54,896 nt of DNA from Enterobacteria phage YYZ-2008. The stretch lies in the sequence record NC_011356, one strand, 5' to 3'. Each line of letters opens with the position of its first letter. Within the stretch, counting starts at the first letter, position 1. Position numbers: made by a program. Of this stretch, positions 15,001 to 18,000 are shown piece by piece.

Positions 15001-18000
15001 TTCAAACTCAACAATGAGTTTCAGCGCAACAGAATTATCCGGAGTCTGGATTTAAAGTGAAGGAGTGAGCATGAGCGACCTATCATTAACCCAGCCAAAG
15101 CTAAAAGAATGTCCGTTTTGCGGCGGTAATGCTCGTCTGTGGGTTGAGGCCGGAATAAATATTGATGTGTGGGGCTATGCAGAATGTGACCTCTGTGAAG
15201 CCAGGGGGGCATGGGCACCATCAGTTGCTGCGGCGGCTGAAAAATGGAACCGGAGAGCAGGAGATGAAGCAAACCTTTCTGCTTCGCAACGAAGCAATCA
15301 GAAATAACGCCATAGACGCCATTCTCTCACTACCCATCGACGACAAGTCACCCCACGAAGTCCACGTTAAAGAACCCAAGCGCAGCAAAGCGCAGAATGA
15401 CCGCATGTGGCCGATGCTGAACGATGTTTCGCGTCAGGTGCTATGGCATGGTCAACGGCTGGCGCCGGAAGACTGGAAAGACCTGTTCACTGCCCTGTGG
15501 CTTAAGACCAAAAAACTGGAGCAACGAAGTGTGCCTGGTATCGACGGTGGCGTTGTCATGCTTGGCGTGCGTACCAGCAAAATGCGGAAGGCCAGCATGA
15601 CTGAGCTTATCGAAATCATGTTCTGGTTCGGCTCAGAGCGCAACGTGCGGTGGAGTGATGACTCCCGGCGAGAGTATGAATGGTCACAACGAAAAGGGAA
15701 GGCTGCATGACTATCAAATCAAATACGCCAGCACACGACAAGGACTGCTGGCAAACGCCGCTCTGGCTTTTTGATGCGCTGGATATTGAGTTTGGATTCT
15801 GGCTGGATTCAGCTGCGAGCGACAAAAACGCTCTGTGCGCTCACTGGCTAACTGAGGCTGACGACGCGCTAAATTCTGAGTGGATAAGCCACGGTGCAAT
15901 CTGGAATAACCCACCGTACAGCAATATCAGGCCGTGGGTGGAAAAAGCCGCTGAGCAGTGCATACAACAGCGACAGACGGTAGTGATGCTTGTGCCAGAG
16001 GATATGTCTGTCGGATGGTTCAGCAAGGCTCTGGAGAGTGTTGACGAAGTTCGCATCATCACTGATGGACGGATTAATTTTATCGAACCATCGACAGGGC
16101 TGGAGAAGAAGGGAAACAGCAAAGGCTCAATGTTGCTGATTTGGCGACCGTTCATCAGTCCTCGACGGATGTTTACTACCGTATCCAAAGCGGCATTGAT
16201 GGCGATCGGGCTGGGCGTCAGGAGGGCTGCATGAGGCGACAGCGACGAAGTATCACCGACATCATCTGCGAAAACTGCAAATACCTTCCAACGAAACGCT
16301 CCAGAAATAAACGCAAGCCAATCCCAAAAGAATCTGACGTAAAAACCTTCAACTACACGGCTCACCTGTGGGATATCCGGTGGCTAAGACATCGTGCGAG
16401 GAAAACAAGGTGATTGACGCGATGATTTATTCGGGGCTATATTCCTCACGCGCCAGCAAAATCTGGCGTCGGGATTAGCACCCCGGATATCGAAACGGTG
16501 CATAACCGCGCTGGCGGTTTTTTTATGCGCTAAGCACAGTCACATTCGCGATTTATGGCGGGCTGTGTGGGGGAGCCGAAAGGCTCGCCGGATGTTTCGA
16601 CCGGTAGTGCTAACCCCGCACAGTTCGCCACCACGATGATTAGCACCTGACGGTGGCGAGGTAAAAATAATCGAAACGCGAGGTCATTATGGCTGTTCAA
16701 ATTTCTGTCGAAAACCTTTCCCCTGTTACCTATAACCAGATCCCCGTAATTACTACTGAACTGTTGGCTCACCTTTACGGAACAAAAATCAAAAACATTT
16801 CTGATAACTTTCTGAACAACACGACGCGATTCATGCCCGGAAAGCATTACTTTAAAATTGAAAAAAACGAATTACGCGAGTTTAAGAACAGACCCGAAAC
16901 AATCGGGTTAGTTGGTAAAAATGCCCGCTCCCTCATCCTCTGGACAGAACGCGGAGCAGCCCGTCATGCAAAATGCTCGAAACCGATCAGGCGTGGGAAG
17001 TNTTCGAAAACTGGAAAGACTGCTATTTCAGCCCAGTGCGAGAAAAATACTGGCAAACAAGAGAAGNAAACCCAATGAGCTTTCTGCAAAAGANGCAAAC
17101 AGCCTTGTATGGTTATGGGATTATGCCANCCGCTCACAGGCATAATTCCGCGAACTGTATCCGGCGCTAAAACAAATTCAATCGAACTATTCCGGCAGAT
17201 GTTACGACTACGGTCATGAGTTCTCGTATGTTATTGGAATGGCGAGAGACGTTTTAATCAATCACACACGAGATGTTGATATTAATGAGCCAGACGGACC
17301 AACGAATCTTTCCGCATGGGTAAGGCTTAAGAACAAAGAATTACCTCCTTCACTACATCGCTACTGACAATTGACAACTTAACAAACCCAGCTTCGGCTG
17401 GGTTTTTTATTGGTGAATTTTCAATATGAGAGGACATGACAATGAACGAGCTGATAAATAGCAATGCCATCAAAATGACAAGCATTGAAATCGCTGAGTT
17501 GGTGGGAAGCCAACACGGTAATGTCAGAATATCAATAGAACGTCTGGCAAAGCGTGGGGTGATTCAACTTCCTTCAATGCAAAAAGTTGAAAATAAACAA
17601 ACAATTAGCCCTAACAAATTCACAAGCGTGTATATATTCGAAGGCGAACAAGGTAAGCGAGACAGCATTATTGTCGTCGCTCAGTTGTCGCCGGAATTCA
17701 CCGCTCGCCTTGTTGACCGCTGGCGAGAACTCGAAGGGGCAACCGCGAAAATACCACAAACCTTTTCTGAGGCATTGCGCCTTGCGGCCGACCTTGAAGA
17801 CCAGAAGGCTGAACTGGAGAAACAGCTTGCTCTCGCAGCACCTAAAGTTGAGTTTGCCGATCGAGTTGGCGAGGACAGCGGAATTTTGATTGGAAACTTT
17901 GCAAAGGTTGTTGGTATTGGTCCAAACAAACTGTTTGCGTGGATGCGCGATCACAAAATCCTTATTGCTTCAGGTGCCCGGCGCAATGTGCCAATGCAGG

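Follow-up and report, generated by a model that had tools for sequence, protein, structure and literature searches.

The nin-region antirepressor gene (ant) of Enterobacteria phage YYZ-2008 (sequence record NC_011356) is recorded with a broken reading frame and with several ambiguous bases (Ns). The whole 54,896-bp stretch of DNA that was analysed is referred to here as the window. The frameshifts, the stop codon, and the Ns of nin ant are very probably errors of the record, judging from comparison with other sequences, where a low-quality patch of about 176 bp (16969-17144) falsely breaks the frame. The true nin ant most likely encodes the intact protein of 225 residues, with an ORF6N domain and a P22_AR_C domain, that is found in near-identical prophages. 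The locus, in a Stx1a lambdoid prophage with the gene order ninE - ant - roi - ninG, is an ordinary antirepressor gene of the nin region.

Disruptions in the recorded nin ant

The reading frames of nin ant were assigned from the list of open reading frames (ORFs) and the alignment to the intact allele. The coding sequence lies in frame 0 at 16689 to about 16970, in frame 2 at 16973-17032, again in frame 0 at 17034-17067, and in frame 1 at 17068-17367. In addition, EKLED reads as ENWKD because of a local -1/+1 scramble. A preliminary description of this DNA had stated that the frame changes at least twice; the changes are real and their count is three. The same description had reported an in-frame TAA in place of a TTA codon. 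That stop codon exists and results from a T to A change at 17144, but it occupies 17143-17145 and not 17141-17143 as had been given. The four clustered Ns that had been reported are located at 17002, 17067, 17094, and 17129. They represent four of the nine Ns in the window and fall inside 128 bp, and the chance of finding at least four of nine Ns within 128 bp is at most about 6e-6. The earlier concern about the quality of the sequence in this region is upheld.

The five remaining Ns of the window are solitary (5208, 5308, 22361, 45025, and 53392). The closest genome has an unambiguous base at each of those that could be aligned (5208, 22361, 45025, and 53392). These lone Ns point to imperfect base calling across the whole record.

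The patch of differences

All ten differences between the recorded gene and the intact allele are located in the patch. The differences were counted against TX 265-1, a complete genome with a prophage collinear with the whole of the window. FRIK944 was left out of the counting because it is rearranged, with its match to the tail region lying 80 kb from the nin region. The ten differences are A5>A4; N for G; A5>A4 and then AA>AAA five bases on; CC>CCC; N together with CC>CCC; N for A; N for A; and the T>A that makes the TAA. They consist of +1 or -1 miscounts in short runs of A or C, Ns, and one substitution. Between 11779 and 24203, only two single-base length differences and one N are found beyond the cluster of ten, and two Ns are the only differences between 34486 and 54896. 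The probability that ten of 13 differences fall within 176 of 12,425 bp is bounded at 6e-14, and the largest cluster obtained in two million simulations had seven.

The other differences that are private to the window are likewise additions of one base in short homopolymers. Since the ten differences are miscounts, Ns, and a single substitution, and the window gains single bases in other homopolymers too, the patch looks like the product of poor base calling and not of gene decay. Short homopolymers of the window are longer by one base than those of two complete genomes at 19693, 19830, 25066, and 25077, where either side may be in error. All four positions are intergenic (between Q and stx1, and downstream of the lysozyme gene).

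The patch was also compared with viral sequences in IMG/VR. A 41-mer that is specific to the window and contains three of the anomalies has 0 matches in IMG/VR, whereas its intact 40-mer counterpart occurs in 71 loci. These 71 homologues do not vary at eight of the ten anomaly positions, and the 55 polymorphic columns of the same stretch are cleanly called in the window.

Intact ant in near-identical prophages

The 851-bp query that covers 16600-17450 was searched with megablast against complete E. coli genomes. Nine complete O157:H7 chromosomes match 100% of the query at 98.8% identity, and the query matches up to six places per O157:H7 genome. According to the annotation of the matching genomes, the locus belongs to a Stx1a lambdoid prophage integrated beside mlrA (yehV), with the genes arranged as ninB, methyltransferase, ninE, ant, KilAC-domain protein (roi), ninG, ninH, Q, and stx1AB. 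The module order ninE - ant - roi - ninG - ninH - Q is thus present in the RefSeq/GenBank annotation of near-identical loci, and the ORFs of the window agree with it.

In the near-identical prophages, ant is an intact ORF of 678 bp that encodes 225 residues (WP_000290551.1) and is identical to the recorded gene outside the 176-bp patch. The preliminary description had regarded one intact ORF at 16689-17366 as evidence against a degenerate gene, and exactly such an ORF is seen in these genomes. Records of 46 contigs contain precisely this intact protein. In IMG/VR, 12 of 12 full-length homologues are intact and read-through to the same C-terminus is found in 66 of the 71 loci. None of the independent sequences of the same element (the nine complete genomes, the 46 contigs, and IMG/VR as searched with the 41-mer) reproduces the disruptions.

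The Stx1 prophage of FRIK944 (3150000-3199999, compared with 41000-45000 of the window) differs from the window in its tail-tip module and lacks an ant between L and K. The tail region of the window matches FRIK944 at 100% identity about 80 kb away. This layout suggests recombination between neighbouring prophages.

The ant-roi segment of phage phi24B (HM208303) has 91.7% nucleotide identity to the window over 100% of the 851-bp query. Judged by this similarity, nin ant is the known nin-region gene upstream of roi and the orthologue of phi24B ant. Ant of phi24B has been reported to be encoded directly upstream of Roi (Smith et al., 2012, PMC3430580). Deletion of phi24B ant leaves superinfection unaffected (Fogg et al., 2011, PMC3064807). 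The pR'-lux output of the deletion after norfloxacin is about 27-31% of the wild type, and a plasmid copy of ant largely restores the pR' output (PMC3064807). The likely role of Ant is to make derepression faster during induction, and the lowered pR' output of the phi24B deletion is indirect evidence that Ant may bind and inactivate the prophage repressor.

The repeat shared by nin ant and the tail-operon ant

The window contains a second ant in the tail operon, and the 3' parts of both genes form a direct repeat. The repeat search of the window identified 17072-17371 and 43411-43710 (94%, ungapped). Gapped alignment lengthens the repeat to 17052-17409 and 43392-43747 with about 94% identity, and a BLAST comparison with a related genome finds 93.5% identity across 356 bp. 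The repeat contains the C-terminal coding part of the two genes and an intrinsic terminator, and it begins in the linker just before P22_AR_C. The terminator of nin ant has a folding energy of -15.1 kcal/mol with a z-score of -4.7. These results agree with the preliminary description, where a near-identical 3' segment of about 355 bp with its terminator had been noticed in both genes and the nin gene had been described as an antirepressor paralogue of the tail-operon ant that shares the C-terminal coding module.

TX 265-1 also has both ant copies, the second one being 24.4 kb downstream and between tail genes L and K. Since both copies occur in independent complete genomes, the repeat is a real feature of this phage type and not a product of assembly. 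The shared last 355 bp or so is a real and routine phage mosaic module. The longest identical runs between the two copies are 88, 56, and 36 bp. Runs of this length satisfy the minimal homology needed for RecA-dependent exchange and would permit it. The deletion recombinant, represented by a chimeric query of the 5' part of nin ant and the gpK flank, was not found at any place with at least 80% coverage in 5,426 complete E. coli genomes, in a search that did not take in the reciprocal junction.

The nin ant alleles exhibit two C-terminal haplotypes, of which the window has type A. Type B is taken to be the phi24B-like haplotype. The identity of type A is 94.9% with the tail copy but about 83% with the sampled type-B nin allele (IMG/VR locus L009). 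The closer similarity of type A to the tail copy than to type B indicates that the two loci exchanged this module in the past. Over residues 122-225, nin Ant and the Ant of P22-like Salmonella phages share about 92% identity.

A second mosaic joint was identified inside ant at nucleotide 231 or so (about 16919 of the window). In 59 of the 71 IMG/VR loci (L006-L076), only the 3' two-thirds of ant is held in common with the window and other ORF6N-type N-termini are present. Ant matches in two pieces over about 1.3 kb, instead of 0.68 kb, in some Stx2a phages (LC616043, LC616045, LC616049, and LC616072), which could be an insertion in ant or a duplication of it.

Alternative explanations for the broken frame

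The preliminary description had offered a decaying paralogue and an assembly collapse as readings of the locus. Isolate-specific inactivation of nin ant by several indels and a nonsense mutation, with the Ns being incidental, would make it a true pseudogene, and we consider this unlikely. The sequence as given does contain three frameshifts and a stop codon, redundancy with the three other antirepressor-type genes of the prophage could relax selection, and deletion of ant is tolerated in phi24B. However, about six real lesions and four Ns would have to be accommodated in 176 bp, and apart from a single one the lesions are miscounted runs or Ns. Neutral decay would not concentrate ten lesions in 176 bp and leave the remainder of the 12.4-kb surroundings free of substitutions. 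The gene is intact in the same prophage of the nine complete genomes, on the 46 contigs, and in each of the 12 full-length homologues from IMG/VR, where the variant 41-mer has no match. The regulatory leader of nin ant is untouched, and a decaying paralogue does not fit these results. The intact and covarying leader gives indirect support for nin ant being in use.

It is far less probable still that reads from the tail copy (43392-43747) were merged into the nin copy during assembly and left an ambiguous and shifted consensus. A repeat of 355 bp with 94% identity within the same genome could invite such a collapse, and the cluster of Ns partly overlaps the repeat. In the three-way alignment of the window nin copy, the TX 265-1 nin copy, and the window tail copy, though, the window has the nin base at 29 of the 29 columns that distinguish nin from tail; 0 of 29 are affected and none has the tail base. 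Five anomalies inside the repeat sit where the copies agree, and the other five are upstream of the repeat boundary. Merging would do the opposite, so the collapse was dismissed, and both copies occur 24.4 kb apart in independent complete genomes. The slightest chance of all is given to a mixed template, where ant paralogues of co-resident O157 prophages would have contaminated the sequenced DNA and produced ambiguous calls. The many matching places per O157:H7 genome (up to six) and the existence of several ant alleles would allow for it. Other ant alleles could not have given rise to the Ns by contamination because the eight invariant anomaly positions are the same in all 71 homologues, including alleles that are about 13-17% divergent, and the 55 polymorphic columns are called without ambiguity.

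Some points weigh against errors of the record as the explanation. The call is drawn from comparison of sequences and not from reads or quality values. Both main reference genomes may hold homopolymer errors of their own, since portal genes are annotated as frameshifted in both. The C at 17071, which is one of the ten differences, is the majority state among the homologues and could be a true polymorphism. A recent and strain-specific inactivation of nin ant also keeps a small probability.

The RNA leader of nin ant

The segment upstream of nin ant (16437-16683) matches known RNA families, and its elements are listed in Table 1. Two exposed segments of the C4-type RNA have two complementary words each. 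GTTTCGA is complementary to TCGAAAC at 16490-16496 (a1, just 3' of the RF03163 match) and at 16671-16677 (a2). GTGCTAA is complementary to TTAGCAC at 16475-16481 (b1) and at 16640-16646 (b2). The a2 site ends three bases before the Shine-Dalgarno sequence of ant. An ORF of 31 codons (16555-16650) overlaps C4 and ends 38 nucleotides before the ATG of ant; it has no Pfam match. The alignment of homologues shows conservation of the TTGAC box in the promoter-like site before the leader.

The C4 segments and their targets change together. Six specificity types were identified among 22 distinct upstream sequences from IMG/VR. The helices were scored with Watson-Crick pairs only and with restricted positions, which replaced a noisy measure that permitted GU pairs. 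The cognate helices are mostly 6-9 nucleotides for the a site and always 7-8 nucleotides for the b site, and the non-cognate helices are 2-5 nucleotides unless the module is shared. Only two a-site cells have as few as 4 nucleotides, namely a2 of locus L006 (wrong choice of ATG) and a1 of locus L010 (pairing through G·U). The a2 site is just 5' of the ribosome-binding site of ant in five of the six types; the ATG choice in L006 prevented a2 from being located there. Duplex folding of C4 with the leader, compared with shuffled sequences, was uninformative. The C4 antisense RNA that controls icd-ant in the immI region of P1/P7 was reportedly described by Citron and Schuster in 1990.

Antirepressor-type genes of the prophage

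The intact nin Ant acquires ORF6N (PF10543, 73 bits) and P22_AR_C (PF10548, 104.2 bits) in the Pfam search. It does not have P22_AR_N and ORF6N is present instead. The tail Ant acquires P22_AR_N (135.8 bits) and P22_AR_C (102.6 bits). A search of PDB sequences with the intact Ant gave no match at E <= 0.01. The domains confirm that the prophage has four antirepressor-type genes, as had been proposed (nin Ant, Roi, the 25332-25901 protein, and tail Ant). In the four genes, a small number of phage regulator domains recur in shuffled combinations. A pattern of shuffled phage regulator domains is said to have been described by Iyer, Koonin and Aravind in 2002.

A direct repeat of 146 bp with 77% identity (25546-25691 and 43015-43160) joins the P22_AR_N part of the lysis-cassette gene to the tail ant. 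The tail ant is part of a P22 immI-like cassette (42111-43747) that consists of a divergent Arc/Mnt-like gene, an Arc-like gene, ant, and a terminator, and is located between L (41396-42094) and K (43760-44497).

Table 1. Features of the window that are related to nin ant, its leader, and the other antirepressor-type genes.
Feature	Position	Strand	Evidence
Promoter-like site TTGACG-18-TATATT before IsrK/C4 leader	16414..16443	+	Consensus scan 10/12; weak (one found, 1.7 expected)
c4-a1b1 element, upstream C4 target pair	16437..16489	+	Rfam RF03163, 50.6 bits (gathering 46.7); complementarity to C4 loops
IsrK-like small RNA with intrinsic terminator (stem 16504-16519 and T-run)	16450..16524	+	Rfam RF01394, 76.6 bits (gathering 50), full length; scan, fold
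C4-type antisense RNA, a' GTTTCGA 16594-16600, b' GTGCTAA 16607-16613	16551..16635	+	Rfam RF01695, 75.1 bits (gathering 45), model 1-87/87
ant leader, downstream C4 targets b2 TTAGCAC 16640-16646 and a2 TCGAAAC 16671-16677, Shine-Dalgarno GAGG 16680-16683	16640..16683	+	Complementary words
nin-region ant (ORF6N + P22_AR_C), as recorded with 3 frameshifts, 1 stop, 4 Ns	16689..17367	+	ORFs, alignment, Pfam, annotation
Patch with all 10 differences from intact allele	16969..17144	.	Alignments, counts
Repeat copy 1, P22_AR_C coding module and terminator	17052..17409	+	Repeat search, alignment, BLAST
Intrinsic terminator of nin ant, CCCAGC-TTCG-GCTGGG, 9-bp stem, UUCG loop, T-run	17384..17409	+	Terminator scan, fold
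roi (weak Phage_pRha + ANT/KilAC), conserved downstream neighbour of nin ant	17436..18164	+	Pfam, ORFs, annotation
P22_AR_N + ORF11CD3 protein, lysis cassette	25332..25901	+	Pfam
Arc/Mnt-like ribbon-helix-helix repressor gene, divergent from tail ant operon	42111..42431	-	Pfam Arc 73.3 bits; RefSeq Arc family
Arc-like ribbon-helix-helix gene directly upstream of tail ant	42539..42712	+	Pfam Arc 22.1 bits (cutoff 20.4); RefSeq
Tail-operon ant (P22_AR_N + P22_AR_C), between gpL and gpK	42783..43706	+	Pfam, annotation
Repeat copy 2, P22_AR_C module and terminator, hairpin 43725-43742	43392..43747	+	Repeat search, alignment, BLAST, fold

Other features were also observed elsewhere in the window. 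Three overlapping copies of a 281-nucleotide unit, with a spacing of 162 nucleotides and 91-96% identity, are located in the head-gene region (33770-34374). The portal gene that corresponds to these repeats is annotated as frameshifted in both reference genomes. The Rfam search identified STnc100 just downstream of stx1B (21201-21414, plus strand), the AgvB anti-GcvB small RNA (21416-21475, minus strand), and the lambda cIII thermoregulator (7553-7611, minus strand).

Working model and significance

Transcription of the locus would start upstream of the leader or read in from PR, and would pass the IsrK-like RNA, which has a leaky terminator in this model, and then the C4-type RNA. The two exposed C4 segments are predicted to pair with twin targets, one set being in or just 3' of the IsrK-like element and the other being in the ant leader beside the Shine-Dalgarno sequence. 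This pairing would gate the translation of ant in the manner of P1/P7 immI and of the Gifsy-1 isrK-orf45-anrP locus; we infer the direction of the C4 control. Ant, with a target that we also infer, would then help to relieve repression so that late pR' transcription rises faster after induction, as for the phi24B orthologue. The P22_AR_C segment and the terminator are a real mosaic module that also occurs in the second ant, which lies between L and K in an Arc/Arc/Ant cassette like immI of P22.

The gene, its context, and its kind of regulation are all already known, and the record itself is the most likely source of the apparent decay. The class of nin ant has already been studied; after induction, it speeds late expression and with it that of Shiga toxin. 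The C4-type leader with its covarying classes provides a handle on the cross-talk of prophages in enterohaemorrhagic E. coli, and both RNA families are already in Rfam. Apparent pseudogenes with clustered Ns in older phage records should not be counted as decay or used as an evolutionary argument without the reads.

A broader proposal is put forward tentatively, and we regard it as possible but rather doubtful. One Stx1a prophage might carry two complete immI modules, the nin module being gated by RNA (IsrK/C4, P1-like) and the tail module by protein (Arc/Mnt-like, P22-like), with a near-identical P22_AR_C effector in common. At least six combinatorial C4 classes across Stx-type phages could then define antirepressor immunity groups. 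If this were true, the immunity groups would decide which co-resident O157 prophages induce each other, and the shared C-terminal module would be the repressor-targeting part that is swapped between loci by recombination.

Comparison with known systems

The nin ant resembles Ant of the Stx2 phage phi24B (vB_EcoP_24B) in the ninE-ant-roi-ninG context, the ORF6N-type N-terminus, and the P22-Ant-like C-terminus. It differs in that the allele of the window has the type A P22_AR_C segment and that the gene is frame-broken as recorded.

The immI region of P22 (mnt-arc-ant) is similar to both loci of the window. Nin Ant has P22_AR_C, and the tail ant has full P22_AR_N and P22_AR_C together with divergent and co-directional Arc-like genes. 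However, based on the ORFs of the window, nin ant does not have adjoining Arc/Mnt (ribbon-helix-helix) genes and has an RNA-based leader instead.

In the immI region of P1/P7, a C4 antisense RNA controls icd-ant (PMC12197685). Both systems exhibit a C4-family RNA on the same strand upstream of ant and heteroimmune specificity variants. Both also exhibit a1/b1 and a2/b2 target sets for two exposed C4 segments, where the downstream set is at the ribosome-binding site. Unlike P1/P7, the window has no icd-like ORF; 53 nucleotides separate C4 from the ATG of ant and no ORF starts there. The a2 site also directly abuts the Shine-Dalgarno sequence of ant, and the cassette sits in a lambdoid nin region.

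The Gifsy-1 isrK-orf45-anrP locus belongs to the same family as the leader of nin ant. In Gifsy-1, IsrK controls the translation of an antirepressor-like protein that triggers induction, and the short IsrK RNA acts as an activator of translation by way of coupling to orf45 (Hershko-Shalev et al., 2016, PMC4825925). Translational coupling is uncertain in the window, unlike in Gifsy-1, given the 38 nucleotides between the end of the 31-codon ORF and the ATG of ant. The arrangement of the window is nevertheless consistent with that of Gifsy-1, where a full-length isrK match with its terminator is followed by a conserved RNA that overlaps a short ORF and then by an antirepressor-like gene.

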